Source: Candidatus Shapirobacteria bacterium
GTDB taxonomy: Bacteria > Patescibacteriota > Microgenomatia > UBA12405
Length of the DNA: 64,000 nucleotides
Assembly (NCBI GenBank): GCA_041665485.1
Contig: JBAYIT010000001.1
Span: forward strand, 204,270-268,269
Direction: 5' to 3'
The translations under genes and the position numbers were made by a program. The notes under the pieces were generated by a model. It was not told the origin of the DNA and searched no databases. It saw nothing but the letters and a program-made list of their open reading frames with translations. How positions within the stretch are numbered: the stretch's first letter is position 1; each line of letters begins with the position of its first letter. Positions 9,343-50,997 of the stretch are shown piece by piece.

Positions 9343-9448
9343 TATTCTGGCTTAAGATAGACTAAATAAAAGATAGGCTTCACTAAAGGCCCTAGGAATG
9401 AAGATAGGTGTTAGATCTTAGTTCTTAGATCTTGGATCTTAGATTAGG

Positions 9449-19921: not shown

Positions 19922-19928
19922 GTAATAA

Positions 19929-20000: not shown

Positions 20001-20065
20001 CAAAAAGAAGAATTAAGTTTTCCCCCTTTTGCCTTGTTTTCCTTATTATTTTGTTTTTTTCATAA

Positions 20066-21217: not shown

Positions 21218-21257
21218 GAATTTACGAATTTACGAATTTACGAATCTGGAAAGATAG

Positions 21258-21632: not shown

Positions 21633-21664
21633 ATTCTAGATTCGTTAATTCTAGATTCTTAATT

Positions 21665-22774: not shown

Positions 22775-22887
22775 AATTTTTAATTTTTAATTTTTAATTT
22801 TAAATCAATTTTTAATTCATAATTTTAAAATTAGAAAATTATATTTTGACTAAAAATTTCAAATTTTAAATTTAAAATTAAATTGTC

Positions 22888-24915: not shown

Positions 24916-24965
24916 ATCCTAGTTCCTAGTTCCTAGATCATAGATCCTAGTTCCTAGATTTTGGA
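24916..24965. repeat. Family-C repeat (tagatcctagttcc…) in an intergenic position
   Basis: Same heptamer-based element that encodes 'SNIQDLRSK' inside genes at 25330-28365 and 41290-42020. Confidence 0.6.
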
Positions 24966-25325
24966 TTTTAGGTATTTGATGAGAGAGTTCAACATTTTAC
25001 CGATTTGGTTGGACATTTCGATTAAGTGGTTATACTCCAGTATTTTGATATAACCTAAATCTTTAGCAAGTAAGAGGTGATACTTGGTTTCGGCTAAAGA
25101 ACCCTTGGAGGTGTATAGAAATTGAATATACTCTTTTTTCGTTTGGCGTTCGTTTCCTTCGACGATGTTGGTGGCAACAGAACTGGACGATCTTTTAACC
25201 TGATCCGTTAAAGAGTATTTTTCTTCGGGTGGAAATGTTTTAGTTGCTTTGTAAACTTCGACAGTAAGTTGGTGAGACAATTGCCATACCCTTAAGTTTT
25301 CAAAACTGTTTTGTTCTGTTTCCAT
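24954..25325 (-). CDS. Four-helix-bundle protein (Avd/23S-IVS family), second copy
   Basis: 'LRVWQLSHQLTVEVYKATKTFPPEEKYSLTDQVKRSSSSVATNIVEG'. Confidence 0.75.
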   Translation of the reverse strand: METEQNSFENLRVWQLSHQLTVEVYKATKTFPPEEKYSLTDQVKRSSSSVATNIVEGNERQTKKEYIQFLYTSKGSLAETKYHLLLAKDLGYIKILEYNHLIEMSNQIGKMLNSLIKYLKSKI

Positions 25326-25353
25326 CTAACATCTAGGACCTAGCAACTAGGAT

Positions 25354-26508
25354 CTAATTAATAATCCACCACTTGAATTCAATGTCTTCGGTAACAGGGG
25401 AGTCGAGGCCGACAATAAAGGAGCCGGGTTGTTTGGAGAAGATTTGAAGGTTTTGATTTTTGCCACCTTTTGTTGTAGTTAGGTAGATTTGGGATAGGGA
25501 TGAGACGTGGGAGTTGGTGATAGTTAGTTGCTTTTGATTGGCGGGTAGGGTGCTGTTGCCGGAGAGAGCGTTGCTGTCGGATTGATTAACAACAGAGATC
25601 TTTTTGTCGGTTTCGGGAGAGGCGATGATGGGGCCATTGGGAATTGAGGCTTCGAGAAGAGGACCTTCGGGAGAGATGGTAGATCCTGGATCCTGGATCC
25701 TGGATGGGAATGAAGTGGGATTATTATTTTTATTTTGCGACAGTAAATTTTCCAGGGCGGATTTTTCCGAAGAAACAACTTGAATTTGGCTTTGGTCGGT
25801 AAGGAGGGGAAGGAGGCGGGTGTAGGTGGCTAGGGCCTCTGGTATTTGGCCAATTTGTTGTTGGAGGCGGGCGAGATCGTAAAAATTCTGAGCCTTGGTG
25901 GGTTCGAGACTGACGGTGGCCATAAGGTATTGGAGAGTATTTTGGGCATCGCCTTTTTTAGCATAGAGCGAGGCCAAAAGGCGAGATATTTCGGCAGAAG
26001 ACGGATTTAGTCGATTGGCGATGGAAAAATCGGCTAAAGCAGAATCGATAAATTGAGGCTGGGAGTCGGAAAGAGATTGATAGATACGGGCGCGTTGTTC
26101 GTAACCACGGAAATCTTGAGGGAATAATTTGATGGCATCGGTGGCGGAGAGGATGGACTGATTGAGAAGGTCGATAGTAGATGGTCGATCGTTGATCGTC
26201 GATGTTGGTTTTTGTTGTTGGAGGGCGAGGGCCTGTGAGAAGTATGTTTGGGAGGCGAGGAGGTAATGTTGGATGGACTTGGGAACTTGGGTGGGAATGA
26301 TTTGGATCTTAGATGGTAGATCTTGGATCTTAGATGAAGGATTTTGATTAGATTTGAGGAGGACGAGACTGCCAAAAGAGATAATGGAGAGGCCGGAAAT
26401 GGAGAGGAGGGGGAGCACGGAGTTCTTAGATCTTGGATGATAGATCTTAGATGGTTGAGAGAGGCCGAGAGAAGAGAGTTTGGTGATTTGATCGGGAGTG
26501 AGATACAT
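25354..26508 (-). CDS. Membrane-anchored TPR-repeat protein with the C-terminal 'WWIIN' domain
   Basis: N-terminal TM 'LPLLSISGLSIISFGSLVLL'. TPR-like repeats. The C-terminal ~60 aa, '…IVGLDSPVTEDIEFKWWIIN', are homologous to the C-terminus of the giant protein. Confidence 0.6.
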   Translation of the reverse strand: MYLTPDQITKLSSLGLSQPSKIYHPRSKNSVLPLLSISGLSIISFGSLVLLKSNQNPSSKIQDLPSKIQIIPTQVPKSIQHYLLASQTYFSQALALQQQKPTSTINDRPSTIDLLNQSILSATDAIKLFPQDFRGYEQRARIYQSLSDSQPQFIDSALADFSIANRLNPSSAEISRLLASLYAKKGDAQNTLQYLMATVSLEPTKAQNFYDLARLQQQIGQIPEALATYTRLLPLLTDQSQIQVVSSEKSALENLLSQNKNNNPTSFPSRIQDPGSTISPEGPLLEASIPNGPIIASPETDKKISVVNQSDSNALSGNSTLPANQKQLTITNSHVSSLSQIYLTTTKGGKNQNLQIFSKQPGSFIVGLDSPVTEDIEFKWWIIN

Positions 26509-26566
26509 GTGAGAAAATTTTAAATTCTAAATTCTAAATTTTAAATTTTAAATAAAAACAAGATAG

Positions 26567-26908
26567 TTATTTTTTAATTAGAGCAATTTTAGAAAAAATA
26601 AGAGAAAGTTCGTGAGCTTCTTGGTAAAGAATAGCAAAAATAGCATGTTGATTTGGGATTGCTTTAAAAAACATCTTTAACCAGTAGCGAGTTTCCATTG
26701 ATTCTCTTTTACAAATTAGGATTTTATTACGAAAATCTTTGGGACTTGAAGCTCCATTGGCTTCAGAATAATTAGCACCAATACTGGTAGCACTACGAAT
26801 TATTTGTTTGATTAATGGTAAGGTAATGGCTGTTTTGGGTAATTTTTGGCACAGATCAATAATATCTTCGCTAAATTTTTCAGTTCTTTTTTCTAAGTTG
26901 TACTCCAT
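26567..26908 (-). CDS. Four-helix-bundle protein (Avd/23S-IVS family), third and more divergent copy
   Basis: 'IIRSATSIGANYSEANGASSPKDFRNKILICKRESMETRYWL'. Confidence 0.6.
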   Translation of the reverse strand: MEYNLEKRTEKFSEDIIDLCQKLPKTAITLPLIKQIIRSATSIGANYSEANGASSPKDFRNKILICKRESMETRYWLKMFFKAIPNQHAIFAILYQEAHELSLIFSKIALIKK

Positions 26909-27020
26909 GAGATATAAGAAAATTTTAAATTCTAAATTTTTTAATTTTAAATAAAAACAAAAATAAAACTTATAATCACTGATTATTTTAGAATTTAGAA
27001 TTTAAAATTTAGAATTGTTT
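26909..27020. repeat. AT-rich intergenic repeat family (aatttaaaatt / tagaattt)n
   Basis: Similar blocks occur at 22775-22890, 26509-26566, 43375-43452, 48600-48711, 50040-50170, 51836-51968, 58500-58560 and 59900-60060. Confidence 0.6.
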
Positions 27021-30000
27021 TTAGTTAATGATCCACCAATTAATATCAATATTATGATCGAGGGGGTTGTCGATGGCAATGGTGAAACTAGATTTTAGAT
27101 CTTGGATGTTAGATGTTGGATCAATGTATTTGTCTTTAATATAAATGACTTGATTGTTAGTTGAGCCGACGGGGGTGAGGTAGACCATGGAAGCAGAAGT
27201 GAGTTGGTTGTTGAGGATGATGATTTCGGTTTGGCCGGCGATGAGAGTAGTGGTGCCGGCGGTAGTATTGGAAGCGATTTCCGCCGATTGGGTAGCAGAT
27301 TCACTCGGATCGGCTTGGGCGATGGCGACGTTGGGGAGGATGGTTAACTTGTTAGATCTTAGATCCTGGATGTTAGATGTTAGAGCGGTGAGAGAGGTGG
27401 TTTGAATATCGGAGGCAGTTATAAGATAGGTGGAGAGGGAACCCGAAATTGTGGCAGTTTGAGCGGTTAAGGTGCCGTTTAGATAGATATTTCCATTAAC
27501 AGTGACATCGCCGTTGTCGGCAATAATAAGAGTGTTGTTCATGATGTTAATAGTGCCAACTTTGGAGGGTTGAATGTAGAGAACCGAGGCGGTGGTTTCA
27601 ATAAGATTGTCTTTAATGATAATTTGGCCGGATTGGAGGGTGCCGGAAATTAGGGCGTCGGCCAATTCGGCTTGGCCGGCGACGGCCAACTGCCCAGCAA
27701 CAACCAGATTGTCGGTAAGAGCCAGAGAGCCGGTAATTTGAGCCGAGCCGGTGGAAATATCAGCCAGCCAGTTTTCTGATTGAGAGAGTAAGACGTCTTC
27801 TGGGGGAGTAGTAACAGTGGATGTGTCGATGATTTTCTTGACTTCGTCGCGGAGGGCGGAGATTTTTTGAGTCATCAGGTCGCCAAAGTTACCTTCACGG
27901 CTGATGATTTGATCGGCGTAGAGGATGCCACTGATGGTGGCATCTTTAGATCTTAGATCCTGGATGTTAGATGTTAGAGCGGTGATAGCGTTGGCGGAGA
28001 GAGTGGTAACACCGATGTCTTGGGCGGTGATGGTTTTGGATTTTAGATCCTGGATGTTAGATGTTAGGGAGTCAAGGTGATCGACATTAAGGCTGGGGGT
28101 TTTAATGTTTTGAGCGAAGAGAGAGCCAATAACTTCGGTGTCGCCGCCGATTTTGAGAGTAGAACCAATACCGGTGTTAGAGATTGGTGTAATAGTTTGT
28201 GTTTCGATATCATTAGATACTAATTTGGAAGTATTAATGATTCCTGCCTTTAGATTGGCAATAAGAGCTTGACTGAACTGTCCAAGACGGGTAACGGCGG
28301 AGCCGTTACTGGATGTTAGATGATAGATCTTAGATCCTGGATCTTGGATGTTAGTTTCTGGTGAAGTGACGATCTGGCCGAGGGTGTCGAGAGTAAGGAG
28401 GGTGTCGGGGTCAAACCAGCTAGGTTGGACTAAAGCGAGAATAGTGCAGTTACCCGGGTCAGAGCAGGAAGATGAGCTTTCCAGAGCTTTACCGATAATT
28501 GGCCCCGAGGTGGTGGCTTTTTGGGCACGGCCTTCGATGGTGGTAGAAGCAGTGAGCGGATCTCCAGGGCTAATAGCTCCATTTTCGAGGGTGATTTTAA
28601 CTGGCACTCGGCCGGAAAGAGCGATGGGGTAGACATTTTGGGAGGTTTCCGAAGAGCCAAGAAGAAGACCGGGATTAGTAGAAACGACACCGACGAGTTT
28701 TTGACTGCCGGCTTGGGCGCGGAGGACATGGCCAGTGTTTTCGAGATCGAAGGTAACAAGTTCGCCGGTGGAGAGATTTTGAGTAGAGGGGTAATTTTCG
28801 GCCAAATCGGCGTTGGCGGTGTCAACCGAGCCGATGTGTAAGACACTGCCATAGTTATTTTGATAATACTGTTTGAAGTACATATCGACGGCGGTATAGC
28901 TGGCGGTGTCCCAGACTGAACCGTTGTAGTAACCAGCTTGGCCTCCAGTATAGGTTGAACTACTATCTTTTTCTCTGACATTGATGTAATTTGATCCGTC
29001 TCCACCAGTGGAGGTGGTGGTAACAAGACAGTATTTGGTACCGGCTTGGAGATAGGGCTTGGTAGAGAAGGTGAGGGAATATTCGGCGCCAGGAGAAGCG
29101 GTTTCGCCAATGCTGGTGTTGGCGATATTACTCGAGGTGGCGACGACGGTTCCGTTTGGTTGGTTGCCATCGCAATTTTGGAGCTGAACAGAGAAGTTGT
29201 AGGAACCGGCACCGACTTTCCATAACTGGAGAGTAACTTTTGACAAGCTACCACTGGCTTGGGGAGTGAAACTTTGAGAAAAAAGACGAGTGCCGTAAAC
29301 AGCAAAACTATTGTTGGGGCCAGTGAAGCCTTGGTCGAGGGTTTCGGCGCCGGCAGCAGTGGAAACATCAATTCGGGCGCTGACGGAACCGTCGGATTTA
29401 TAGAAATAGAAATCATTACCACTGCCGGCCCAGAGACGAAGATCGTCAGTGCCACCTTGTTTGATGTCGCCACCGGCAACAATTAAACTACTACCAACGC
29501 TTAGACTGGTGGATAAATAACCATTGCCAACAACCTGAAGTTTGTAGGTAGGATTGGTAATGCCGATACCGACATTGCCGGTAGAATTTTGGATAAATAA
29601 TCTTGAATTTCCATCCTGATCAATATGGAAGGCGCTGGTAGTGGTTGGCTGTGACAATGTCCAAGTGCTTCGACCAGTTTCAACTAAGATAAACTTTGGC
29701 GTTGTCCCGGCAGTAGTCAAACTGTATATCGTGTTATTTGATTTAATGATGCCATTTACATCGAGGGTATAGCCTGGTGCGGTGGTACCAACACCAACAT
29801 TGCCGGTAGTGTAAAGGTTAGTAAAGCTAGCGGTGCCACCGACATTGAGAAGATAGAGAGCGTTGGTGGAGCCAATACCAAGGCGAGTAGAGATTAAGGC
29901 ATCGCCATTAACTTCTAGTTTGTAGAGGGGATTAGTTGTACCAATACCGACATTTCCGTAATTTGTTATTGTCATTGCTCTTGATAATCCAGCGCTAGCA

Positions 30001-33000
30001 TTACCTACATCGAAACCTAATGCGGAATTCACCCAGCTTGACCCTCTTTCAAATCCCCCAGTTATTCTTGATGCACTTCCAATCCAACCGGCACTACTAC
30101 CGTCATTGTTTTGAAAGACAATACTTGGGGAATATCTTCCGGGAGAGGAAGGAGAGCTGGTTAGAGTAAGTTGGGGATTATTGGCTGAGCCTGTAGTACT
30201 ATATAGGTGTAGTGAGCTTGTCGGAGCAGTTGTTCCAATACCAACATTGCCACTAGCATGAAGATTAGTAAAGCTAGCGGTGCCACCGACATTGAGAAGA
30301 TAGAGAGCGTTGGTGGAGCCAATACCAAGGCGAGTAGAGATTAAAGCATCGCCATTGACATGGAGTTTGTAGAGAGGAGCGGTGGTACCAATGCCAACAT
30401 TGCCGGTGGAATTTAGAAAAAGCTGGTTATCCCAACCGGTGATATCACCAGTGGTAGAAGTGGAAGAAGCAAGAAGTAATCCGTTACTATAGCCACGAAT
30501 TTGAGTGGCGGCGTTACTGACAATATGTCTTAGTGTACTACCAACGGCGACAGCATTAAAACGGATGGAACCACTTTGGTAGAGAGAGAGAGAACTGTCG
30601 CTAATTGAAGTAGAGTTAGATGTGTTGAAGTAGTAAGCGGTATTGCCAATGTCGACGAACTTGGTGCCAGTGATGATGCCGTTGGCGCTGATGGTGGCGG
30701 AGGAGCCAACACTTAGAGTGCCACCGATACTAAGATTGGTGGTAAAGTTGCCATTACCGATGACGTTGAGTTTAGCGGTGCTAGTAGCGCCGATGCCAAC
30801 ATTACCACCAAACATAGCATTGCCATTAATGCGTAAGTTAGCAGTTTGATCAGCGGTAAATTGATTTTGGACGAAGTCACCGGTGTTACCAATATTTAAA
30901 TAATAACTACCATGTTGGCCATCGAGGAGATCAGCACTTAGGTTGGTGACAGTGTTGGTGCTACCGACAGAGACAAAAGTACCACCGATGGTTAAGTTGG
31001 TGGTGATATTGGCAGAACCACTAACGTTGAGCTTGTAGGAAGAATTGGTTGCGCCGATTCCTAATGGTCCAAACATACTGACAGATCCGTATTTAAGATA
31101 ATCGTTGTAATTTGTAGAGAAAGCGTTGGCTTGATCGCCTTCGTAGAGCGAAACTGAATCGATCCAATCTGTATCACCGGCATGGGAAGTGCCGGTGTTG
31201 GTTAACATGAATATACTTATGGTTTTGTCGTCACCGATGGTGAAATTGGTTGACTGCCAGTGCCAGGCGTCGTCTTTAATGAGAGTTTGGTTGCCGTAGG
31301 CGACAATATAAGAGGTTCCATCATAAACACCGAGTTGAAGAGGGAGAGTGTTGGTTGAGCTAGATTTATACCAAAAGTTTAAGGTGTATTTTCTGGCCGT
31401 TGTCAGAGTGCTTCGAGGAGGGACGGTGTATTTTGCTCCTTGCCAGGCGCCACCATCAACCATTTTTAAAGAGTAGGTTGACTTATAGCCGGTGTCTCGG
31501 GAGAAGGTGCCACCATTGGATATCCAGGCGTCGGGAATGGATGAAGTGCCGATATTCCAATAATCAAAATTGCCATTGTTGATTAAATTGGCGGGAGCAT
31601 TGGTGCCGTCGCCACCAACCAGGTGCCCGGATAGATTAAGATTGCCGGAAATATCAACTTTTTGAGAGGGGGCGGTGGTGCCAAATCCGACATTGCCAGA
31701 AGAGGCGATGTATAAAGCCTGGGTGTTGGAATTGATACCTAAGAAAGAAAGGCCAAAAGAAGAAACACCAATGTTGGTGTTTTGAGTTAGTGTTCCTCCT
31801 AGTCCAACAGAACTGGTGCCGATGGATTGAAGGCCATTGGTGGCAGCAATAAAGTCATTGGCGCCATTTTTATCCCAAGCAGTAGTGTCTAAATAACCAA
31901 CTAAACCACTATTACCACTCAAGAAAGCAGCCACACTTGATCCACCAATGGCAGTATTAGAAAGGTTTAAAGAAGCAGTGGTGGTGGTGGTGCCAACACT
32001 TAAATCAGCGTTAGTGTAGATAGAAGCGGTTGAAGTTCCACCTACACCTAGTTTAGTAAAGACACCTTCACCAGTAACATGGAGCTTGTAAAGAGGATTG
32101 GTGGTGCCAAGGCCAATGTTGGTGCCGGAGTCATAGATAAGAGAGTTGGTAATGCTGACAGTGGCAGTAGTGCCAGTGAATTTAGTGAGGTAGCCGGAAA
32201 TAGGGTTGTTATCAACCAAGGCGATGTCTTTGTAGGTGGTATAGGCGGCGGTGCTACCGAAACTGCCTTGGTAAAGACGCATTCCCAAGCTAGACTTGTT
32301 AAATTCGAGGAGGTTTTGATTTCCACCTGAACCATCGAGATATGAATTAAGATGGAGGAAGTCTGCCCAAGGGCCGGCACTATTGTTGTTGTAGGCAGTA
32401 AAACCGAATTTTAGATTACTAGTGTTGACTTCAGTAGGACCTATTGAACGGTTGTCTTCCCCGTAGAGGCTAAGAGCTGGCCCACCTTCAGCGTTGGAAG
32501 TGGCGTAATTACCAGTAGTTTGAGTGCCGAGAGTAACATCTCCCCAAGAAAGATCACCATGCATAAGTTGGTTGACAGTACCGGAAGTGCCAATGAGTTG
32601 ATTGGTGGCATTGGTTCTAACCAGAGTGTTGGCGGTGACATTAGTTAGAGTAAGAGTATTACCAATAGAAAGAGTATTGCCAAAAACAGAAGCACCACTA
32701 ACACCAATGCCACCCGAGCTGATAGTTAAACCGGCAAAAAGAGGGGTAGCCCCGGTGTGGATGTTTTGAGGCAGGGAAAGGGTAACGGCTCCGGTGGGGT
32801 TGGAAGCAGTAATTTGATTAGTGGTACCAAGAATGCTGGTAACACCAATATTACTAAAGACATTGGTACTAGAAAGACTAATACCAACACCGGCGGTGTA
32901 AAGAGTGCCAGCACCACTAGTAAAAGCGCCAGCTCCTAAAACATTTTTGTATAAGTTACCAGATGAATCAATAAAAACGGCGGTGGTGCCGACGCCGGTT

Positions 33001-36000
33001 GTGCCAATTCCTAAACCAGAAAAATTAACAGTTCCGCCAACTCCCAAACTTCCAGTTCCACCGACTTGGAGAGTGTAAGAAGGGGTGGTAGTGGCAATAC
33101 CGACTTTACCGGTGGCATCGATTACTAATGCTACGCCACTTGCAAAAGTTTCAGAACCGTATCCAATCTTAAATTTGTGACTATCAGAGCCATCTCTACC
33201 AATCGACCATGAGGTACTTGTATTGGATCTAAAATTTATAACGCTATTGTTTGTAGATTTACCTTGTAAATATAGTAATGCGTTACCAGAGGCGACGTTG
33301 TCTATCATTACCCCAGAAGTCCCCACTATATCTAGGTTAACTCTTGGCCCCGTCGTTCCAATGCCAACATTGCCATTAGCCTTTAAATAAAGTGATTGAG
33401 TATTACCCGTACCCAGGAAAGAAAGATTGTAGGAAGAAAGATTAATGTTGGTGTTTTGAGTAAGTGTTCCACCTAGGCCAATAGATAGTTGATCAGTGCC
33501 AGAGATAGAAGTACCAATACCATTGTAACCAAGAATAGAAGCAGTATTACCAAGACCAATAGATTGAGCAGTACCCAGGGAACCAGCCAACATCCAACTA
33601 ACATTGGCTGATTGAGCATAACGATTATCAAGATCAACAGTGGCCAAAGAAGTGAGATGACCAAGACCATCAAGACCAATGTCTTGAATGACAATACCAT
33701 TACTGTTGTCAGAGGAAGCTTGAGAGGAAGTATCGGCGTGAGAGATAGTGGCACCAACTCCAGTACCGGTAACCACCATACTAGTTCCAGCTTGGAGATT
33801 AAGTAAACCATCAAAGGCCAGACCATTTAAAGCTCTTTTACTAACCACATTATTACTATCGATAAACAAGGCAGTGGTACCAGTACCAGCGACAGTGGAG
33901 GCACTTAAAGTTAAAGTACCACCGATGCCGACATTGGCAGAGAAAGAAGAAGTACCGGTAATACCAATACCACCACTGTTAATGAAAAGTGAATAGGTAC
34001 TATGAGTAGCTCCAACACCTAGTTTAGTAAAGACACCTTCACCAGCTACTTGGAATTTGTAGAGTGGGGCAGTGGTACCAATGCCGACATTACCAGCTGA
34101 CAAGATAGACATGGCATCTACGGGAGTGCCAGCAGTTCGAGTTCTAAAAAAGATACCGCCTAAAACAGCACTATTGTAAGTATTGTCGATATATAGGTTG
34201 GCAACACCATTACCGTTATAGTGAATGAGACCTTGGTAGGCAGCGTTGTTACCAATGGCGACCGAGCCATTATATGCTTGTGCCCCACCGATTGGATCCC
34301 AACCGTTGAACGTTGCTTGGGTGACGGAATTACTATAAACATTAAATGGACTAGTTGGATTAGTCATACCGATGCCTACATTGCCATTGGTAGTAATAGC
34401 CAGGGCTTGGGTGTTGTTATTAACACCCATGATGTAGAGATTGTTAGCACCAGTATTAATGAAAGTATTTTGAGTTAATGTTCCACCTAGACCAATAGAT
34501 AGTTGATCAGTGCCAGAGACAGAAGTACCAATACCATTGTAACCAAGAATAGAAGCGGTATTACCAATACCGACTTGTTGAGCAGTACCAGTATTGCCAG
34601 CCAACATCCAACTAATGTAAGTGTTGTCTTGAAAGGCTAATCCACCTAAAGCTCTTTTACTAACCACATTATTACTATCGATAAACAAGGCAGTGGTACC
34701 AGTACCAGCGACAGTGGAGGCACTTAAAGTTAAAGTACCACCGATGCCGACATTGGCAGTAAAAGAAGTATTGGGAGTAATGGTTAGTCCAAGTCCGGCG
34801 ATAGTAGTTAAGTAGGAAGCATTACCAAAGGTAACAGTAGCACCATTACCCATAAACAAAGGTGACTTGGCAGCAGTAGTAGCAGTAAGAGTGTTGCCAA
34901 CAGAAAGTGTGCCGGTGACACTACCATTACCAGTGACAGACAAAGAAGCGGTAGTAAGAGTGGTGCCAACAGAGAGACTGTTACCAAACACCGAAGCACC
35001 ACTAACTCCAATACCACCAGCGCTGATGGTCAATCCGGCAAAGAGAGGAGTGGAAGAAGTAGTTAGGTGTTGACCAGTGTTAAAGGCAAGTTGGCTGTCA
35101 CCAATAGAATCACCAATGATAGCCAGGGAGACACCAACTCCTTCACCGGCAGTACCAGTAACCCCAATTTGACTATTACCGATAATGGTAGAAACATAAT
35201 TACCGGCAGTTTGAGTGCCGAGAGTAACATCTCCCCAAGAAAGATCACCATGCATAAGTTGGTTGACAGTACCGGAAGTACCAATGAGTTGATTGGTGGC
35301 ATTGGTTCTAACCAGAGTGTTGGCGGTGACATTGGTTAAAGTGAGAGTGTTGCCAATAGAAAGAGTATTGCCAAAAACAGAAGCACCACTAACACCAATC
35401 CCACCCGAGCTGATAGTTAAACCGGCAAAAAGAGGGGTAGCCCCGGTGTGGATGTTTTGAGGAAGAGTTAAAGTAACAGCTCCGGTTTGAGCAGTAGCCG
35501 TAGTGCCATTGGCTAGTATTTGATTGGCAGTGCCAGTTAAAGAAAGGACACCAGTATTAGTAATGGTCAAAGCATCGGTACCGGAAATGGAAGTGCCAAT
35601 ACCACTACCAGCTAAGAAAGAAGCAGTATTACCAAGACCAATAGATTGAGCAGTACCCAGGGAACCAGCCAACATCCAACTAACATTGGCTGATTGAGCA
35701 TAACGAGAATCAAGATCAACAGTGGCTAGGGAAGTCAAATGACCAAGACCATCAAGACCAATGTCTTGGATGACAATACCATTACTATTGTCAGATGAAG
35801 CTTGAGAAGAAGTATCGGCATGAGAGATGGTGGCACCAACTCCGGTACCAGTAACCACCATACTAGTACCAGCTTGGAGATTAAGTAAACCATCAAAGGC
35901 AAGACCATTTAATGCTCTCCGACTAACAACATTATTACTATCGATAAACAAGGCAGTGGTACCAGTACCAGAGACAGTAGAGGCACTTAAAGTTAAAGTA

Positions 36001-39000
36001 CCACCGATGCCAACGTTGTTAGTAAAACTTGAATTACCAGTAACACCAATACCACCAGCATTAACAAAGAGATTTTGAGCAAAGGTAGATCGGCCAGTGA
36101 CAGCCAGAGTACCACCGATACTTAAGTTACCAGTGAGATTACCATTACCACTAACATACAAAGCATTAGTATCTGTTCCTCCTACACCTAACTTAGTAAA
36201 GACACCGGCACCAGCAACTTGGAGAGGGTAAAGAGGGGCAGTAGTGCCGATACCGACGTTGCCACCACTTTTAATAGTGACATTTGCAGTATTATTCGTC
36301 CCCAAAATAACGTCATTAGTACCATAAGTTCCTATTACTAAACCTCTTCCCGTTCCACCATTAGGGTTATTTATAATAAAATCATTGGCGTTTCTAGCTG
36401 CTCCCAAAATTGAAGCTACATTATTATTGACACCTGGAACCATAAAAGCCAGGTACTGTCCAGTCGTATCTCCTACCATAAAGCGAAAATCAGCATTAGT
36501 TCCTGTACTTGTATTTTTCATCTGAACCCCTGATATACCGTCCACGTTGTCGCTAATTAAAACCTTTGGAACTGATCCAGAAAGTATGGGGGTAGTAATC
36601 AGACCTCCAATATCAAAAGTGGCATATGGACTTGTAGTCCCAATACCAACATTGCCATTGGTAGTAATCGCCAGAGCTTGGGTGTTGTTATTAACACCCA
36701 TGATGTAGAGATTGTTAGCACCAGTATTAATGAAAGTATTTTGAGTAAGTGTTCCACCAAGGCCAATAGATAATTGATCAGTGCCAGAGACAGAAGTACC
36801 AATACCATTGTAACCAAGGATAGAAGCGGTATTACCAATACCAACTTGTTGAGCAGTACCAGTATTGCCAGCCAACATCCAACTAATGTAGGTGTTGTCT
36901 TGAAAAGCGAGTCCGCCGAGAGCTCTCCGACTAACAACATTATTACTATCGATAAACAAGGCAGTGGTACCAGTACCAGCGACAGTGGAGGCACTTAAAG
37001 TTAAAGTACCACCGATGCCGACGTTGGCAGTAAAAGAAGTATTGGGAGTAAGAGTAATTCCGGAACCAAGAATGGTGGTTAAACCACTGGCATGACCAAG
37101 AGTAAGAGCACTACCATTGTTACTAAAGATGGGAGAGAAAACAGAGGCAGAGAAAGTAGGAGCATTAGTAGTACCAATGGTGACAGTAGAACCAGAGATA
37201 GTATTTAAGATGTTAGTGCCATTGGCAAAATTAACAGTAACACCAACACCGATAGCAGTACTACCAGCACCAGTAGCTTGCAAAAACCAACGATCATCAC
37301 TACCACTCTTATCCCAACTACTAGTATCAAGATAACCAATCAAACCACTATTACCAGAAAGGAAAGCCGCCACACTTGATCCACCAATGGCAGTGTTACT
37401 TAGATTTAAAGAAGCAGTGGTGGTGGTGGTGCCAACACTTAAATCAGCATTAGTGTAGATAGAAGCGGTTGAAGTCCCACCTACCCCTAGTTTAGTAAAG
37501 ACACCAGCACCAGCAACTTGGAGGGGATAAAGGGGAGCGGTGGTGCCGATGCCGACATTGCCAGCCGTAGTAATCGCCAAAGCTTGGGTGTTGTTATTAA
37601 CACCCATGATGTAGAGATTGTTGGTGCCAGTGTTAATGAAAGTGTTTTGAGTAAGTGTTCCACCTAGGCCAAATGTAATTTGACTAGTACCAACTGAAGT
37701 AGAGGTAATACCATTTAGACCAGTAAAGGATAAAGTGGTGCCACCACTGATGGTTTGATTACTAGAAGCTTTAGCAATCCAGTTGTAGGTACTAGCAGTA
37801 CTATCGAGGAAAGCTAGAGCACCTAATGCTCTTTTACTAACGACATTATTACTATCAATAAACAAAGCAGTGGTACCACTACCAGCAACAGTGGAAGCAC
37901 TTAAAGTTAGAGTACCACCGATGCCGACGTTGTTAGTAAAACTTGAATTACCAGTAACACCAATACCACCAGCATTAACAAAGAGATTTTGAGCAAAGGT
38001 AGATCGGCCAGTAACAGCCAGAGTGCCACCAACATCAAGGTTGGTGGTAAATCGACCACTGCCGGTAACATCAAGTTTGTAGGCGGGGGAAGTGTTGCCA
38101 ATACCAACCGAGCCGTTGGCTTGAATGTAAAGATTGGTGTTGGCGCCAGATCCGGAAGTAATTTTGAGAGAATAATTGGAGGAAGAGGTGGAGCCAATAT
38201 CGAGATTGAGACCATTGCCGGAAGAATTTGACGAAACAAGAGAGGCAAGGTTACCAGAGCCTGATGAACCGATACTAAAAACAGTGCCAGTGGCTTTGGT
38301 GTAAAGCTGGGAGAGGTTAAGAATGTTGGCAGTGTCGGAACATGATCCGGAAGACTCGGTGCATTTGGAGGAGAAATTGACCAAGGGGTTAAGGATACTA
38401 AGACTACCGCCGGTGGCTGGTTGGAGAGAAACGGTGGCGCCGGCCCAGATGGAGAGGGTGTTGATGGTGTAACTACTGCTGGTGTTAGCGGCGCCGATTT
38501 GGTAACTGGCAACTCCGGTCACTTGATTAATGCCCTGATTCCAGAGAGATGTTTGCCCGGCTCCAAGGGTAACTGTTCTAACGTTATTAACAGACAGAGT
38601 GGAAAAAACAATTTCTGAAGCATTACTACTAGTGCCGATGGAAAGGTTGGTATTCATGCCACTGGCGGTAGTGGCAACGCCAATAGGGGTAATTTGATTA
38701 ACATTGTAAAAACTGGCAGCGCCGGCGACGAGGCTGGCAGCTTGACCGGACATGGTGATTCCGATGCTGTAAGTGCCAGGAGTAGGGGCAACCAGATACC
38801 AAATATCGGCCCAGGTTTGAGTGCCGGAGGCGGTGGTGGCTTTGGTGAGTGGGGTACCGTTCCAGTAAATGCCGGAAACGGTGCGGGTAAGACTGTTTTG
38901 ATAATTGACACCGACAATTAAAATGTTGTTGGAGTTATTGCCAACTGTGTGGTTGAAATTGAGATTGGTGGTATTACTGACACCGATGGAAGAATTGGCA

Positions 39001-41522
39001 TCGGCGGTGATGGTGGCGCTTCCGCCGGTTATATTGGCGGTTAGATTTCTTAAAACCGAGAGGTCATTATTATTGACAGTGGAATTTCCGGTGTAAGTGG
39101 TGTCGTTGATAATATCTAACTTATTAGTGGGGCTGGTGGTGCCAAGGCCAAAATTGCCGGTGCCAAAAAAGCCGAAGTTATTGCCATTAAGATCGATTTT
39201 GGTGAGTTGGTTGAGAGTGCCACCGAGACCAACAGTTCGAGAAGTTTCAGTTAAGCCGTTGTTGAAAGTATAGGCACTGCCAAAAGCCAGAGCACCAAGA
39301 ATGTTTTTGTATAAATTGCCAGAGGCATCAGTAAAGACGGCGGTGGTGCCGGTGCCAGTAGAACCAAGGCCTAAACCACTAAAATTAACCGTACCACCAA
39401 CTCCCAAACTTCCTGTTCCCCCGACTTGGAGTCTGTAGGTAGGATTGGTGGTGCCGATACCAACATTGCCGATATTTGTAATTGTGACCCTATCGTTAGT
39501 TCCTAAAGCACCAGTGTTGTTAGAAAAGGTAAACGCCCCCGAATTACTATTATCAGCTCCAATTGTCCAAGCGTTTGCTCCCTGAGTGGTATCAAAATAT
39601 ATAGATGGGTCTCCGGCCAAACCTCCTGCAGTTTTAATTATAATTCCTGCGTTAGAATTAGCCGTGTTACTGGTATTTTGTATCGTCATTCCATTGTTGC
39701 CACCTGAGTTACTACCACCAACTGTGAATGCAGGTAATCCGTTTGCGTTTATGGTTACAGCTCCAGTGAAGTTGCCATCTCCAGCAACATTAAGAAGGGC
39801 AGTAGCGTGGGTACCACCAATACCTAATTTAGTGAAATTACCAGCACCATTAACGTCAAGAGTGTAGAGAGGGAGGGTGGTTCCAATTCCGACATTGCCG
39901 GATCCGTCGATAGTTAATCTTCGGGTAGCATTTGTATATAAACTAAATTTGTTGTTTCCGGCAACACCGATTAGTGCATTTGTGGCTGTTCCTGAATCAA
40001 AGCCCGCATCACTTCCCCAATAAGATAAAGCCGTACTACCGACTTTTAAATATTGATAGGTTCCACTGGCAGCTACGCCGTTGATGGTAATTGCACCTGA
40101 TACTTCTATTTTTGTAGTTGGGTTGGTTGTTCCGAGGCCGACTCGGCCAGTGGCGTAATCGAAATACATAACTTCAGTATTACCAATATTAAGTCTGGTA
40201 TTTTGGGTGAGGGCGCCGCCGAGGCCGAAAACATTAGTAGAGATAGCGGATAAACCATTGGTGGTGGAGTAAGTCGTGCCGATGGCGGTGTCGGAGAAAG
40301 CCAGAGAACCGAGAACACGGCGGGTGATAATGTTGGTGGATGGATCAATGAAGAGGGCGGTGGTGCCGGCGCCAACGATAGTGGAGTTTGAAAGGGTTAG
40401 AGCGCCACCAATGTAAACGTTGCCGGAGGCGCCAACGGAAAAACGAGTATTCAATTGAGTGTTGCCAACCCCTAAATCGTAGTTTTGAAATTGAAGAAAA
40501 TTGTAATTATTGGAATAGTTACTTCTGACGATGCCGGAATAAAGATTACCGGAAACCATGTTGGCGTCGGCTTCGGCTTGAACAAAGCCACCAACAGCAG
40601 GGGCGTTCATTTCAAAAGAAAGATCAAGAATGCCGCCAGCATCGGGGTTGATGGTGATGTTGCCACCACTGCCGTCGCTAGCTTTGAGGAGCATGGCTTG
40701 GCCTTCGATGCCAAAAGTGCCGGAAACTGATTTGATGGTGGGGGAGGTTTCGCCAAGGTTGAGGTTGCCAGAGTTATCAAAAACAGCGACGGTATTTTTG
40801 TAACCGATGCCGGAGGTGCCAAGGCCCAAACCCTGAAGAGTTTCGGAATTAAGGGCATAGGCGACGGTGGCAATTTGCTGGCGGGGGTCCATTACTTCGG
40901 TGCCGGCGGTAATTTCTAGCCAAACTTCGGCGTTTTCAGAGAAAACGCTGGGAGGGATTTCAGTGCCGTGAGTTTTGCCAATGACGACATTAAAAATGCC
41001 ATTGTCGTCGGGTTTAACAACTTGACTATTGCCGGTGCCGGAGGTGTAGAGAGAGGTGCCGGCGCCAAGCGTGCCATTGTTCCAGAGTTTAAAAATAATG
41101 CCGGTTTCGGAAGTGATGGGATTGCTGTAGGAATCGGTGAGACGGCCTTGAAAGGAGAGAATTCTGCCGGGGCGGATGGGGGAGGAGGTGGTGGAATAGG
41201 CAAGGTTTTTGCGGGCTTTGAGGATGGTTTGGGAATAGAGGCCGTAGGTGAGACCGGCGAATAATATGAGGAGGGTGGAGAGAACGAGATAACGACTAAA
41301 TGAGATCCTAGATGTTAGATCCTGGATCCTAGATTGGAGGTTGGATGGGGTTGGGGATGGTGGTTGGTAACTGGTAATAAACTTCTTTTTAATTAAGAAT
41401 TTTTTGAAGACGGAGATAGAGGAGAGCTTGCGGTTGATGGTGGCGGGGGAAAGATTTTGGGACTTTAAGTAGTCTTGGTAGGAGGAGAGACGAGAATGAT
41501 CGAAATACTCTTTGAGTTGCAA
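27021..41522 (-). CDS. Giant (4833 aa) membrane-anchored surface protein with tail-fibre-like repeats, an N-terminal integrase core-binding-like domain and the C-terminal 'WWIIN' domain
   Basis: Single uninterrupted ORF. N-terminus 'SYQDYLKSQNLSPATINRKLSSISVFKKFL' (tyrosine-recombinase SAM-like motif), then TM 'YLVLSTLLILFAGLTYGLY'. More than 4000 aa of G/T/S/N-rich repeats with 'GNVGIGTT.P.YKL.V.G'. Five 'SNIQDL(R/K)SK' motifs. C-terminus '…IDNPLDHNIDINWWIIN'. Confidence 0.8.
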   Translation of the reverse strand: MQLKEYFDHSRLSSYQDYLKSQNLSPATINRKLSSISVFKKFLIKKKFITSYQPPSPTPSNLQSRIQDLTSRISFSRYLVLSTLLILFAGLTYGLYSQTILKARKNLAYSTTSSPIRPGRILSFQGRLTDSYSNPITSETGIIFKLWNNGTLGAGTSLYTSGTGNSQVVKPDDNGIFNVVIGKTHGTEIPPSVFSENAEVWLEITAGTEVMDPRQQIATVAYALNSETLQGLGLGTSGIGYKNTVAVFDNSGNLNLGETSPTIKSVSGTFGIEGQAMLLKASDGSGGNITINPDAGGILDLSFEMNAPAVGGFVQAEADANMVSGNLYSGIVRSNYSNNYNFLQFQNYDLGVGNTQLNTRFSVGASGNVYIGGALTLSNSTIVGAGTTALFIDPSTNIITRRVLGSLAFSDTAIGTTYSTTNGLSAISTNVFGLGGALTQNTRLNIGNTEVMYFDYATGRVGLGTTNPTTKIEVSGAITINGVAASGTYQYLKVGSTALSYWGSDAGFDSGTATNALIGVAGNNKFSLYTNATRRLTIDGSGNVGIGTTLPLYTLDVNGAGNFTKLGIGGTHATALLNVAGDGNFTGAVTINANGLPAFTVGGSNSGGNNGMTIQNTSNTANSNAGIIIKTAGGLAGDPSIYFDTTQGANAWTIGADNSNSGAFTFSNNTGALGTNDRVTITNIGNVGIGTTNPTYRLQVGGTGSLGVGGTVNFSGLGLGSTGTGTTAVFTDASGNLYKNILGALAFGSAYTFNNGLTETSRTVGLGGTLNQLTKIDLNGNNFGFFGTGNFGLGTTSPTNKLDIINDTTYTGNSTVNNNDLSVLRNLTANITGGSATITADANSSIGVSNTTNLNFNHTVGNNSNNILIVGVNYQNSLTRTVSGIYWNGTPLTKATTASGTQTWADIWYLVAPTPGTYSIGITMSGQAASLVAGAASFYNVNQITPIGVATTASGMNTNLSIGTSSNASEIVFSTLSVNNVRTVTLGAGQTSLWNQGINQVTGVASYQIGAANTSSSYTINTLSIWAGATVSLQPATGGSLSILNPLVNFSSKCTESSGSCSDTANILNLSQLYTKATGTVFSIGSSGSGNLASLVSSNSSGNGLNLDIGSTSSSNYSLKITSGSGANTNLYIQANGSVGIGNTSPAYKLDVTGSGRFTTNLDVGGTLAVTGRSTFAQNLFVNAGGIGVTGNSSFTNNVGIGGTLTLSASTVAGSGTTALFIDSNNVVSKRALGALAFLDSTASTYNWIAKASSNQTISGGTTLSFTGLNGITSTSVGTSQITFGLGGTLTQNTFINTGTNNLYIMGVNNNTQALAITTAGNVGIGTTAPLYPLQVAGAGVFTKLGVGGTSTASIYTNADLSVGTTTTTASLNLSNTAIGGSSVAAFLSGNSGLIGYLDTSSWDKSGSDDRWFLQATGAGSTAIGVGVTVNFANGTNILNTISGSTVTIGTTNAPTFSASVFSPIFSNNGSALTLGHASGLTTILGSGITLTPNTSFTANVGIGGTLTLSASTVAGTGTTALFIDSNNVVSRRALGGLAFQDNTYISWMLAGNTGTAQQVGIGNTASILGYNGIGTSVSGTDQLSIGLGGTLTQNTFINTGANNLYIMGVNNNTQALAITTNGNVGIGTTSPYATFDIGGLITTPILSGSVPKVLISDNVDGISGVQMKNTSTGTNADFRFMVGDTTGQYLAFMVPGVNNNVASILGAARNANDFIINNPNGGTGRGLVIGTYGTNDVILGTNNTANVTIKSGGNVGIGTTAPLYPLQVAGAGVFTKLGVGGTDTNALYVSGNGNLTGNLSIGGTLAVTGRSTFAQNLFVNAGGIGVTGNSSFTNNVGIGGTLTLSASTVSGTGTTALFIDSNNVVSRRALNGLAFDGLLNLQAGTSMVVTGTGVGATISHADTSSQASSDNSNGIVIQDIGLDGLGHLTSLATVDLDSRYAQSANVSWMLAGSLGTAQSIGLGNTASFLAGSGIGTSISGTDALTITNTGVLSLTGTANQILANGTTATAQTGAVTLTLPQNIHTGATPLFAGLTISSGGIGVSGASVFGNTLSIGNTLTLTNVTANTLVRTNATNQLIGTSGTVNQLMHGDLSWGDVTLGTQTAGNYVSTIIGNSQIGVTGTAGEGVGVSLAIIGDSIGDSQLAFNTGQHLTTSSTPLFAGLTISAGGIGVSGASVFGNSLSVGTTLTTASLSVTGNGSVTGTLSVGNTLTATTAAKSPLFMGNGATVTFGNASYLTTIAGLGLTITPNTSFTANVGIGGTLTLSASTVAGTGTTALFIDSNNVVSKRALGGLAFQDNTYISWMLAGNTGTAQQVGIGNTASILGYNGIGTSVSGTDQLSIGLGGTLTQNTFINTGANNLYIMGVNNNTQALAITTNGNVGIGMTNPTSPFNVYSNSVTQATFNGWDPIGGAQAYNGSVAIGNNAAYQGLIHYNGNGVANLYIDNTYNSAVLGGIFFRTRTAGTPVDAMSILSAGNVGIGTTAPLYKFQVAGEGVFTKLGVGATHSTYSLFINSGGIGITGTSSFSANVGIGGTLTLSASTVAGTGTTALFIDSNNVVSKRALNGLAFDGLLNLQAGTSMVVTGTGVGATISHADTSSQASSDNSNGIVIQDIGLDGLGHLTSLATVDLDNRYAQSANVSWMLAGSLGTAQSIGLGNTASILGYNGIGTSISGTDQLSIGLGGTLTQNTNINLSSYNLSFLGTGNTQSLYLKANGNVGIGTTGPRVNLDIVGTSGVMIDNVASGNALLYLQGKSTNNSVINFRSNTSTSWSIGRDGSDSHKFKIGYGSETFASGVALVIDATGKVGIATTTPSYTLQVGGTGSLGVGGTVNFSGLGIGTTGVGTTAVFIDSSGNLYKNVLGAGAFTSGAGTLYTAGVGISLSSTNVFSNIGVTSILGTTNQITASNPTGAVTLSLPQNIHTGATPLFAGLTISSGGIGVSGASVFGNTLSIGNTLTLTNVTANTLVRTNATNQLIGTSGTVNQLMHGDLSWGDVTLGTQTTGNYATSNAEGGPALSLYGEDNRSIGPTEVNTSNLKFGFTAYNNNSAGPWADFLHLNSYLDGSGGNQNLLEFNKSSLGMRLYQGSFGSTAAYTTYKDIALVDNNPISGYLTKFTGTTATVSITNSLIYDSGTNIGLGTTNPLYKLHVTGEGVFTKLGVGGTSTASIYTNADLSVGTTTTTASLNLSNTAIGGSSVAAFLSGNSGLVGYLDTTAWDKNGANDFIAATNGLQSIGTSSVGLGGTLTQNTNIGVSSFGLSFLGINSNTQALYIASSGNVGFGTTAPSQKVDISGNLNLSGHLVGGDGTNAPANLINNGNFDYWNIGTSSIPDAWISNGGTFSRDTGYKSTYSLKMVDGGAWQGAKYTVPPRSTLTTARKYTLNFWYKSSSTNTLPLQLGVYDGTSYIVAYGNQTLIKDDAWHWQSTNFTIGDDKTISIFMLTNTGTSHAGDTDWIDSVSLYEGDQANAFSTNYNDYLKYGSVSMFGPLGIGATNSSYKLNVSGSANITTNLTIGGTFVSVGSTNTVTNLSADLLDGQHGSYYLNIGNTGDFVQNQFTADQTANLRINGNAMFGGNVGIGATSTAKLNVIGNGNFTTNLSIGGTLSVGSSATISANGIITGTKFVDIGNTAYYFNTSNSTSISDSSLSLYQSGSIRFNAVAVGSTLRHIVSNAATQIRGYSNGLLLASSTSTTGDITGWDNQLFLNSTGNVGIGTTAPLYKLHVNGDALISTRLGIGSTNALYLLNVGGTASFTNLHASGNVGIGTTAPTSSLHLYSTTGSANNPQLTLTSSPSSPGRYSPSIVFQNNDGSSAGWIGSASRITGGFERGSSWVNSALGFDVGNASAGLSRAMTITNYGNVGIGTTNPLYKLEVNGDALISTRLGIGSTNALYLLNVGGTASFTNLYTTGNVGVGTTAPGYTLDVNGIIKSNNTIYSLTTAGTTPKFILVETGRSTWTLSQPTTTSAFHIDQDGNSRLFIQNSTGNVGIGITNPTYKLQVVGNGYLSTSLSVGSSLIVAGGDIKQGGTDDLRLWAGSGNDFYFYKSDGSVSARIDVSTAAGAETLDQGFTGPNNSFAVYGTRLFSQSFTPQASGSLSKVTLQLWKVGAGSYNFSVQLQNCDGNQPNGTVVATSSNIANTSIGETASPGAEYSLTFSTKPYLQAGTKYCLVTTTSTGGDGSNYINVREKDSSSTYTGGQAGYYNGSVWDTASYTAVDMYFKQYYQNNYGSVLHIGSVDTANADLAENYPSTQNLSTGELVTFDLENTGHVLRAQAGSQKLVGVVSTNPGLLLGSSETSQNVYPIALSGRVPVKITLENGAISPGDPLTASTTIEGRAQKATTSGPIIGKALESSSSCSDPGNCTILALVQPSWFDPDTLLTLDTLGQIVTSPETNIQDPGSKIYHLTSSNGSAVTRLGQFSQALIANLKAGIINTSKLVSNDIETQTITPISNTGIGSTLKIGGDTEVIGSLFAQNIKTPSLNVDHLDSLTSNIQDLKSKTITAQDIGVTTLSANAITALTSNIQDLRSKDATISGILYADQIISREGNFGDLMTQKISALRDEVKKIIDTSTVTTPPEDVLLSQSENWLADISTGSAQITGSLALTDNLVVAGQLAVAGQAELADALISGTLQSGQIIIKDNLIETTASVLYIQPSKVGTINIMNNTLIIADNGDVTVNGNIYLNGTLTAQTATISGSLSTYLITASDIQTTSLTALTSNIQDLRSNKLTILPNVAIAQADPSESATQSAEIASNTTAGTTTLIAGQTEIIILNNQLTSASMVYLTPVGSTNNQVIYIKDKYIDPTSNIQDLKSSFTIAIDNPLDHNIDINWWIIN

Positions 41523-41568
41523 ATTTAATAATTTAAAAATTTAAGAATTTAAAAAATTTTGGAAATTG

Positions 41569-42025
41569 TTAATTTGTGGGTTGTGAATTTGTCCATGTGA
41601 TATATTGGCGTAAATCAGAGATGTAGTTTTTGATAGTTGAAGGGGTGGCATGGTGGGTGGAGAGATAGGTAGCAAACTGTGATATAAGTGCATCAGGGGT
41701 GGGTGGAGGCGGGGAGGCAAGAGAATGGCGAATTTTCTTGAGGGGATTGTGGTCAATCAATTTTTGGTCGAGGGCAAATTGGCAGAAAGAGGAAAGAGAT
41801 GCTAAATACCTCCGGTAGTTAGAATTGGCGGATACTTTGTTAACAAAATCGGAAATTACTTTGGAGTCAAATGGATTACCTTGGCCAACCGAGTCGAAAT
41901 AGGTATAGAGGTCGGAGAGGTAGTTGCGGATAGTGGAATCGGAGTAAGACTTGGATGAAAGCCAGGCACGATAGGAGTTAGAGATCTTAGATCTTAGATC
42001 TTGGATGTTAGATGTTGAGGACATG
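41569..42025 (-). CDS. Stand-alone protein made of integrase N-terminal SAM-like (core-binding) domains, with no catalytic domain
   Basis: 'YSDSTIRNYLSDLYTYF…NYRRYLASLSSFCQFALDQKLIDHNPLKKI' and a second 'ATPSTIKNYISDLRQYITW' match the XerC/D core-binding pattern LSP.TI..Y…L..F..F…NP. Starts 'MSSTSNIQDLRSK'; the ORF track used a TTG start at 42042. Confidence 0.6.
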
Positions 42026-42260
42026 GTTAGCGCCAGAGCCAAACAAAGGAGGTGGCAATGATTAGAAAGGGAATGAGCCGTTCAACTACCGGTTTTACCG
42101 AATATAAAATTTTAGCTTCAAAATTAGACTTTTTAGACATTGTTATCAGTTATTAATAATTAATAATTTAAATATCTACTATATTGAAAAAGCTGTCAAG
42201 AAGGGGAAATTAAGCATTAAATGATGTAGATAGATAGGATCAATTAAGATAGTTTTCAGT

Positions 42261-42286
42261 TACGAGTTACGAGTTACGAGTTTCAC
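42261..42286. repeat. Tandem heptamer repeat (gttacga)3
   Basis: Related heptamers (tacgaat, ctagaat) occur in tandem at 21222-21248, 51616-51646, 54436-54470 and 56641-56690. Confidence 0.6.
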
Positions 42287-50990: not shown

Positions 50991-50997
50991 AAAAATA

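Follow-up and report, generated by a model that had tools for sequence, protein, structure and literature searches.

Why should a short DNA repeat yield one and the same peptide, in one and the same frame, wherever it falls inside a gene? The question is raised by a stretch of 64,000 nucleotides from a Candidatus Shapirobacteria contig (the window), in which a first-pass annotation had described a heptamer-based element that encodes SNIQDL(R/K)SK when it lies in genes. The element had been explained either as a selfish insertion sequence with a frame preference or as a short linear motif, a processing or recognition site shared by a set of surface proteins. Our results suggest, with a probability of about 0.7, that it is a degenerate heptanucleotide simple-sequence repeat (SSR) within a genome-wide population of period-7 arrays of many unit types, and that this population marks this Candidatus Shapirobacteria-like genome (Candidate Phyla Radiation, CPR; Microgenomates) and several of its relatives. 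The peptide is probably a by-product of the repeat, a neutral spacer and not a signal.

A heptamer family among many

We searched the window with a literal 27-mer query, AGATCTTAGATCCTGGATGTTAGATGT, allowing up to 3 mismatches and using 100 shuffles as the control. Six matches were found, all on the plus strand (27090, 27354, 27948, 28038, 28325 and 41989), and none was found in the shuffled controls (0/100 shuffles). About six more copies of the AGATCTT family, all degenerate, were recovered with Tandem Repeats Finder (TRF) and a pattern scan. TRF reported period 7 at every copy of the element, and self-comparison at offset 7 was concordant. Read in the sense direction of the genes, the repeat unit is AAGATCT, which is AGATCTT on the plus strand of the window, and each copy holds 3-6 units. 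At least 13 occurrences had been counted by the first-pass annotation; 12-13 copies are indeed present at the places it named, but only six of them are strict and the rest are degenerate. Similarly, the statement that the element always encodes SNIQDL(R/K)SK holds for the six strict copies, which alone encode [TS]SNIQDL[RK]S, but not for the degenerate ones, whose peptides are circularly related to it and follow the pattern K/N/R-I-Q/Y-D/H-L/P-R/K/G/T/P-S (SRIQDLTSRI, SSKIQDLPSKIQ, SRIQDPGST, NIQDPGSKIYHLTSS and SKIYHPRSK).

We compared the window with itself at offsets of 2-15 and found 28 period-7 arrays, against 0-5 arrays for each other period except 14, which is the double of 7. At a looser threshold there were 36 period-7 arrays against 0.28 expected from shuffles of 50-nt blocks, which preserve local composition, and periods 4-6 and 8-12 gave 0-5. 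TRF output likewise contained dozens of period-7 arrays. The arrays are 17-45 nt long, their density is 2.4/kb in intergenic DNA versus 0.32/kb in coding DNA (about 7.5-fold), and many of them abut or overlap stop codons. Their unit types include AAATTTT, TTTAGAA, GAATCTA, CAATTTT, ATTGGTA and CGTAACT. The window thus has the tandem 7-nt units, the period-7 excess and the intergenic majority of heptanucleotide SSRs of the STRR/TAACTGA type, and the element is one family among many heptamer arrays, not a special one.

When the source contig was followed for 10 kb beyond each end of the window, 2 heptamer arrays were found in each flank; no copy of the AGATCTT family was present in these 10-kb flanks. 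CAATTTT arrays were also seen in intergenic DNA at 42432 and 50052, and TAACTCG/TAACTGA arrays at 42258-42282 in the window, at 5706-5743 in L014 (loci outside the window carry such labels) and at 20360-20381 in L016. Arrays of period 8 were rarer than heptamers and lay at 21218-21245, 41521-41555 and 51612-51642 (GAATTTAC, AAATTTAA and GAATCTAC); L012 has two more, at 8320-8349 and 8861-8918 (ACATTGTT).

Heptamer arrays are also translated in housekeeping genes. The gene of the leucyl-tRNA synthetase LeuRS (53071-55623) contains arrays that encode NQNLESRIKNQE, QFSIFN and SNFQFSI, and that of RadA (9486-10868) contains arrays that encode SQFPNSK and KKSKIKDQK. These arrays belong to other unit families (e.g. 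AGAATCT and CAATTTT), CAATTTT giving (N)FQFSI twice in LeuRS, and orthologue alignments place them at the most variable positions of both proteins.

The open reading frames (ORFs) and domains described earlier for the carrier genes were all located: a giant ORF of 4833 aa (27021..41522), a TPR protein (25354..26508) and a Phage_int_SAM_1 protein (41569..42042), all three on the minus strand, as are the coding copies within them. Five copies lie in the C-terminal part of the giant protein, as claimed. The first strict copy (27089..27121, aa 4801-4811, DPTSNIQDLKSS) is in a variable loop of the C-terminal '..WWIIN' domain. The second (27352..27384, aa 4713-4723, ALTSNIQDLRSN) and third (27946..27978, aa 4515-4525, ALTSNIQDLRSK) match the 27-mer exactly and have about 7 extra bases in common (TCACCGC). 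They are followed by a fourth (28036..28068, aa 4485-4495, SLTSNIQDLKSK) and by a copy of six units (28312..28354, aa 4390-4404, TNIQDPGSKIYHLTSS). Ahead of the transmembrane (TM) helix of the giant protein, where a copy had also been announced, is a degenerate array (41303..41334, aa 63-74, QSRIQDLTSRI) within the linker that joins the SAM-like domain to the helix. The copy at the N-terminus of the Phage_int_SAM_1 protein has five units, of which three are perfect AGATCTT (41982..42016, aa 9-21, STSNIQDLRSKIS).

The two or three copies attributed to the TPR protein are three, all degenerate: a perfect (GATCCTG)x3.4 array (25682..25705, aa 268-276, PSRIQDPGST), a copy right after the TM helix (26305..26335, aa 58-68, SSKIQDLPSKIQ) and one right before it (26424..26453, aa 19-29, PSKIYHPRSK). 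Both intergenic copies were confirmed as well. One, of 6.7 units (TAGATCC/TAGTTCC/TAGATCA, 24913..24959), fills the spacer between two convergent stop codons, and the other (TTAGATC x4.9, 9411..9444) lies 41 nt upstream of radA, retains its stop codons and is unchanged in an independent Logan assembly (L017). Within RadA, on the plus strand, a weak AGATCTT-family array reads in the opposite sense (10306..10337, KMLDVGLVDLR). It is possibly a chance resemblance; we downgraded it as a firm opposite-sense copy because its TRF score is low (34) and it overlaps a conserved RadA segment.

Reading frame, stop codons and codon choice

Translation of (AAGATCT)n gives KI*DLRS in all three frames, and its opposite strand gives RS*ILDL. 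Because 7 and 3 are coprime, a heptamer repeat has a single heptad per strand in all three frames, and every coding copy consequently reads K/N-I-Q/Y-D/H-L/P-R/K/G/T-S. A pure AAGATCT repeat also has one TAA per 21 nt, and both strands carry 1 stop per 21 nt. Across the 11 codon windows of the motif the stop position is occupied by CAG five times, by CAA four times and by TAT twice, giving Q or Y; the array at 28312..28354 holds both of the latter fixes, CAA and TAT, the copy at 26424..26453 was fixed as TAT, and the intergenic copies still have their stops. The constant frame and the constant peptide therefore follow from the arithmetic of 7 versus 3 together with the need to stay open, and no frame-sensing mechanism is required. 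The observation that coding copies are always in the same frame is correct for 10/10 of them, but it is forced by this arithmetic, and a frame preference is not needed as a mechanism because the three frames of (AAGATCT)n are identical in heptad.

The codons of the copies bear on whether the DNA or the peptide is maintained. In these minus-strand genes ACA accounts for 7.5% of Thr codons and CTA for 9.4% of Leu codons, yet every Thr and every Leu in the 11 motif windows is ACA (7 occurrences) and CTA (11 occurrences), respectively. Given the peptide, the probability of the codon set of one copy is about 2e-4. Synonymous variation between copies is near nil, consisting of CAG/CAA at Gln and a single TCC for Ser. 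This reuse of rare codons argues against peptide-level selection. A peptide census with the concatenated motif variants as the query returned 20 word-sharing candidates, of which 0 scored. We conclude that the conserved thing is the DNA, not the peptide.

The window has a GC skew, (G-C)/(G+C), of +0.30 to +0.43 on the plus strand in 4-kb bins over 8001-28000 and 40001-64000, whatever the gene orientation, and because this skew is very strong the minus-strand genes are almost devoid of G-ending codons. In several related loci the skew is |0.24-0.38| (the strong-skew loci are L014, L006, L011, L013, L018 and L019); there is none in L010, L012, L020 and L021.

The best homologues were Candidatus Shapirobacteria proteins, and peptide conservation was checked in them. 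When the C-terminal part of the giant protein is aligned (A1, 39-46% identity), indel-rich linkers of unrelated sequence occupy the motif positions, and in the alignment of its N-terminus (A2, 52-60% identity) the motif site is the hypervariable linker from the SAM-like domain to the TM helix; the peptide is missing from both. An AlphaFold2 model of the C-terminal 559 aa of the giant protein had a mean predicted local distance difference test (pLDDT) score of 47.8, too poor for a fold search. All five C-terminal copies fall in segments of pLDDT <50, which is only suggestive because the model is poor and 63% of the chain falls there too. Taken together, a peptide that is not conserved in orthologues 39-60% identical, codons that are nearly invariant and an empty census leave the proposal of a processing or recognition site unsupported.

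Turnover among relatives and rival explanations

At orthologous sites some relatives carry other units or none. The second copy of the TPR protein (26305..26335) has no counterpart in its L013 orthologue, in which (AATCTAC)n, encoding NLQSTIYHQR, stands where the window has PSKIYHPRSK. In L018 the pre-TM linker of the giant orthologue reads STIYHLPSK where the window has SRIQDLTSRI. In L011 (80-1873) two homologous sites of the C-terminal domain both read LTSDNLRS, with 24 identical nt from CTGACATCTGATAATCTGAGATCT, and L012 (13-2598) has NQVQDDG at least twice at the corresponding sites, with 26 identical nt. In L010 we found SNIQDLRSN, encoded by the same 18 nt as in the window. Sequences that are identical within a genome but differ from one genome to the next point to concerted evolution, or to repeated recolonisation, at the DNA level. 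A period-7 excess was also present in the Shapirobacteria loci L010, L012, L013 and L018, in the Roizmanbacteria locus L020 and in L021, an unassigned contig of related type; it was not seen in L011, L019 or unrelated control loci.

Two details of these loci may be added. The NQVQDDG sequence of L012 (ATCCTGA-ATCAAGT-TCAGGAT) forms a 7-nt inverted repeat, and the same locus has GSGTVQDD four times in tandem. In L013 an assembly gap (a run of N, 7670-7708) in the TPR orthologue lies exactly at the site of the perfect (GATCCTG)n array (25682..25705), and such arrays may break short-read assemblies.

We propose a DNA-level process in which the arrays would arise and be homogenised through replication slippage, through short-patch recombination among arrays of one family, or through both. 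The majority would remain intergenic, often abutting or supplying stop codons, and those within genes would survive only in structurally tolerant, hypervariable linkers. Survival in a gene would also require that the TAA be mutated (to CAG, CAA or TAT here) and that the net length keep the frame.

Several observations weigh against a simple-sequence origin. The unit variants occur in a fixed order, CTAACAT CTAACAT CCARGAT CTAADAT, over about 30 nt in six window copies (e.g. at 27107, 27371, 27965, 28055 and 42006) and in a metagenome contig, L006. Such an order needs inter-site copying, gene conversion or strong convergent pressure; independent slippage would not produce it. The 10/10 clear coding copies, plus the copies of L006 and L010, have the same sense orientation, a bias that the stops do not account for, since the RS*ILDL strand has no more of them, and that is confounded with the extreme strand GC skew. 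In LeuRS the arrays at aa 670-681 and 723-733 replace sequence with length unchanged, whereas simple expansion predicts otherwise. No array length differences were found between independent assemblies (ENA, JGI and Logan), a weak test because these are of the same strain; they are 99.7-100% identical and cover about 1-10220 and 50074-64000 together with flanks, which leaves out the giant, TPR and SAM copies. Finally, the genome-wide statement is drawn from about 84 kb of the 412-kb source contig.

The fixed order is one ground for an ultra-small mobile or dispersed element, in which a compound block of some 30 nt, made up of five heptamers in fixed order, would be copied whole into new sites, coding sites included, through a trans-acting function or template switching. 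Its counterparts would be the small dispersed repeats of cyanobacteria and, in effect, the Rickettsia palindromic elements. The same order of variants is shared by the window copies and by the L006 copy, which lies in a tyrosyl-tRNA synthetase (TyrRS) gene, where CCCAACATCTAACATCCAGGATCTAATATCTAGT encodes LPTSNIQDLISS and 31/33 nt are identical to the first strict copy (27107). The giant protein, the SAM-like protein and TyrRS, whose genes are unrelated, all carry the element, and pairs of motifs are identical within the genomes of L011 and L012 too. The copies are in frame in unrelated genes, but the many indels at their sites leave no clean boundaries of insertion to be traced. On the G-rich plus strand the unit variants are changes from C to G, in the same direction as the extreme skew of the genome, and part of the common pattern may therefore be convergent. 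The orthologous sites hold other units, which resembles turnover in place.

Marks of an insertion sequence were not seen in the copies. Their flanks are unrelated, and inspection of them showed no terminal inverted repeats, no target-site duplications and no conserved flanks, although no dedicated inverted-repeat scan was made. Pfam scans of 9 proteins or protein segments contained no transposase domain. Rfam found two tRNAs only in the window and has no family for the element. The palindromic cores AGATCT, AAATTT and TCTAGA had raised the idea of a hairpin or cruciform, but the arrays fold no better than shuffles as DNA (z-scores +0.6 to -2.1, minimum free energies -1 to -5 kcal/mol) and this idea was rejected.

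Few copies turned up beyond the source contig. We scanned 185,579 species genomes and 241 million metagenome records for exact matches to AGATCYTGGATGTTAGATGT. The species genomes gave 1 match, in a GC-rich Cyanobium contig, and the metagenome contigs gave 5, of which one (L008) is the same Cyanobium-like sequence as L004. All but L006 are chance-like, without period-7 context, leaving 1 bona fide extra copy in the metagenome records and 0 in the species genomes; a 23-mer scan of viral contigs gave no match. Of the selfish insertion sequence proposed earlier, what stands is that the DNA is conserved and not the peptide, as the rare codons, the intergenic stops and the TyrRS copy show, but the element is not an insertion sequence: its flanks are unrelated, inspection showed neither terminal repeats in common nor duplication of the flanks, and it folds no better than shuffles. 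We regard block-copying of a mobile element as unlikely. It is equally doubtful that the block of about 30 nt (CYMAACAT CTAACAT CCARGAT CTAADAT CT) is an actively copied, protein-compatible micro-element of Microgenomates, which would move between unrelated genes and perhaps between genomes and be homogenised in each genome to yield 'signature' linker peptides (SNIQDL here, LTSDNLRS and NQVQDDG in relatives).

A further alternative is that the arrays are contingency loci, in which 7-nt slippage would switch surface proteins off and 21-nt slippage would alter linker length. There is a precedent in NeuO of the E. coli K1 prophage CUS-3, whose poly-psi domain consists of AAGACTC repeats, three units giving one disordered heptad, RLKTQDS; the repeats number 2-93 perfect units and are a proven slippage switch (PMC3046976). 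Here, too, a heptanucleotide repeat is translated into a heptad, 3 does not divide the unit length, the genes in question code for surface proteins, and three perfect units occupy codons 14-20 of the SAM-like ORF, with another 3.4 in the TPR gene. Unlike those of NeuO, however, the copies here have 3-6 degenerate units scattered over many sites, the longest perfect tract is 3.4 units, so that a long perfect tract of the NeuO type is absent, and the arrays covered by the independent assemblies, which span the window ends and not the giant, TPR and SAM copies, show no length variation. Slippage is suppressed in tracts this short (17-45 nt), most of which are degenerate, and like arrays lie in the essential LeuRS, RadA and TyrRS (L006), where off-switching would be lethal. 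Contingency loci are therefore very unlikely.

Least probable of all is a functional short linear motif, SNIQDL(R/K)SK, for the processing, sorting or recognition of CPR surface proteins: the copies do cluster in surface-type proteins, beside TM helices and in a common C-terminal domain, and three genomes pair one genome-specific motif at two homologous sites (SNIQDL in the window, LTSDNLRS in L011, NQVQDDG in L012), which could have to match, but the peptide is unconserved in most orthologues, its rare codons are reused, the same element lies in intergenic DNA and in the cytoplasmic TyrRS, and analogous heptamer peptides occur in LeuRS and RadA.

Setting of the copies and comparison with known repeats

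The giant and TPR proteins have a C-terminal domain of about 90 aa in common, which ends in ..(N/K)WWIIN (27021-27330 and 25354-25650) and is kept in Shapirobacteria homologues, some of which have Peptidase_S74. The Pfam matches of the proteins with this domain here, to K1-lyase_C and Peptidase_G2, are weak. The domain may be a common anchoring or assembly module. Two genes of the 23S_rRNA_IVP family (a four-helix bundle) stand on either side of the TPR gene (24954-25325 and 26567-26908), and this family also adjoins homologous genes in L011, L012 and L020.

The small SAM-like ORF (41569-42042) directly precedes the giant ORF, whose own start is a SAM-like domain. The two are 46 nt apart, with the AT-rich period-8 array in the gap, and in relatives they overlap by 14 nt (L018 8249-8671/8658; L019 9478-10014/10001). 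We considered whether they are one gene split by the AT-rich array and rejected this, as the two-ORF layout is kept in L018 and L019. The middle of the giant gene (28400-41300, about 13 kb) has no period-7 arrays, and its central 10 kb or so has a low GC skew of 0.07-0.20, unlike the two ends of the gene and the surrounding genome; this part may have a differing history or differing constraints. Another giant gene, of 11,461 aa as called and with a Cys-rich N-terminus, lies next to the window, in the 5 kb or so beyond its right end (L014 1-4913), and no AGATCTT-family array was found in its first 1,637 codons in L014.

At the left end, window 1-8000 has a distinct composition (GC 0.34-0.38, GC skew about 0.04) and no heptamer arrays. 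It carries a large serine recombinase (1220..2782), a KAP NTPase (3457..6321) and a helix-turn-helix (HTH) gene, and is probably an integrated foreign island. This serine recombinase is the only recombinase in the gene tables for the window ends.

Short repeats that sit in frame in unrelated genes have been described elsewhere. The Rickettsia palindromic elements (attributed to Ogata, 2000) are said to be palindromic, about 100-150 nt long, and in frame inside unrelated genes, housekeeping genes included; the small dispersed repeats of cyanobacteria (attributed to Elhai, 2008) are said to measure 21-27 nt and likewise to occur in frame in unrelated genes. The element resembles both in adding peptide segments at tolerant surface positions, but differs from the Rickettsia elements in being about 30 nt long and based on tandem heptamers, with no significant hairpin. 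The tandem repeats of Borgs are similarly pervasive and rapidly evolving, both intergenic and in frame, and generate low-complexity or disordered protein regions. Their in-ORF units are reported to be much longer and multiples of 3 nt, whereas the 7-nt unit here gives a protein period of 7 aa.

Other close parallels are heptamers, among them the STRR of cyanobacteria. Heptamer SSRs are over-represented in many bacteria, and a proposed cause is slippage tied to the footprint of the polymerase (PMC4692102). The element is like them in the genome-wide period-7 excess, the intergenic bias and the lineage-specific units, but the window arrays are shorter and often translated, aminoacyl-tRNA synthetases included. 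The TAACTGA direct repeats of Beggiatoaceae, Cyanobacteria and Bacteroidetes form arrays of 2-6 units, mostly intergenic and often over stop codons, with a minority inside ORFs at protein peripheries, where one orientation encodes the heptad LSVISYQ and the other has stops (MacGregor 2015, PMC4679880). The window arrays share with them the short arrays, the frequent overlap with stop codons and the intergenic-plus-ORF pattern, and the window and L014 contain TAACTCG/TAACTGA-type arrays of their own. They differ in that many unit families coexist instead of one dominant heptamer, in that the units are degenerate and the host is a CPR bacterium, and in that both orientations of AGATCTT carry 1 stop per 21 nt, so that coding copies need a stop-removing mutation. 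We found no report of heptamer repeats in CPR/Patescibacteria in the literature searched.

These results have a consequence for annotation. Since any 7-nt repeat has one translation per strand, a peptide that recurs in giant CPR surface proteins is no evidence of a common signal if such a repeat encodes it. Some genomes of Microgenomates, at least, hold many heptanucleotide micro-arrays that are translated in essential genes (LeuRS, RadA and TyrRS) as well as in surface proteins, occupy the most variable positions and turn over between relatives. This adds a deep-branching lineage to the unexplained excess of heptamer repeats in bacteria. If a mobile micro-element were after all the true explanation, it would be among the smallest mobile DNAs known and a general generator of new linkers and disordered segments in the proteins of CPR bacteria, those of essential enzymes among them. 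With genomes of about 0.5-1 Mb and many metagenome-assembled genomes, Microgenomates offer a compact system for weighing slippage against gene conversion and an unknown copying activity, and for studying repeats as a source of new linkers.

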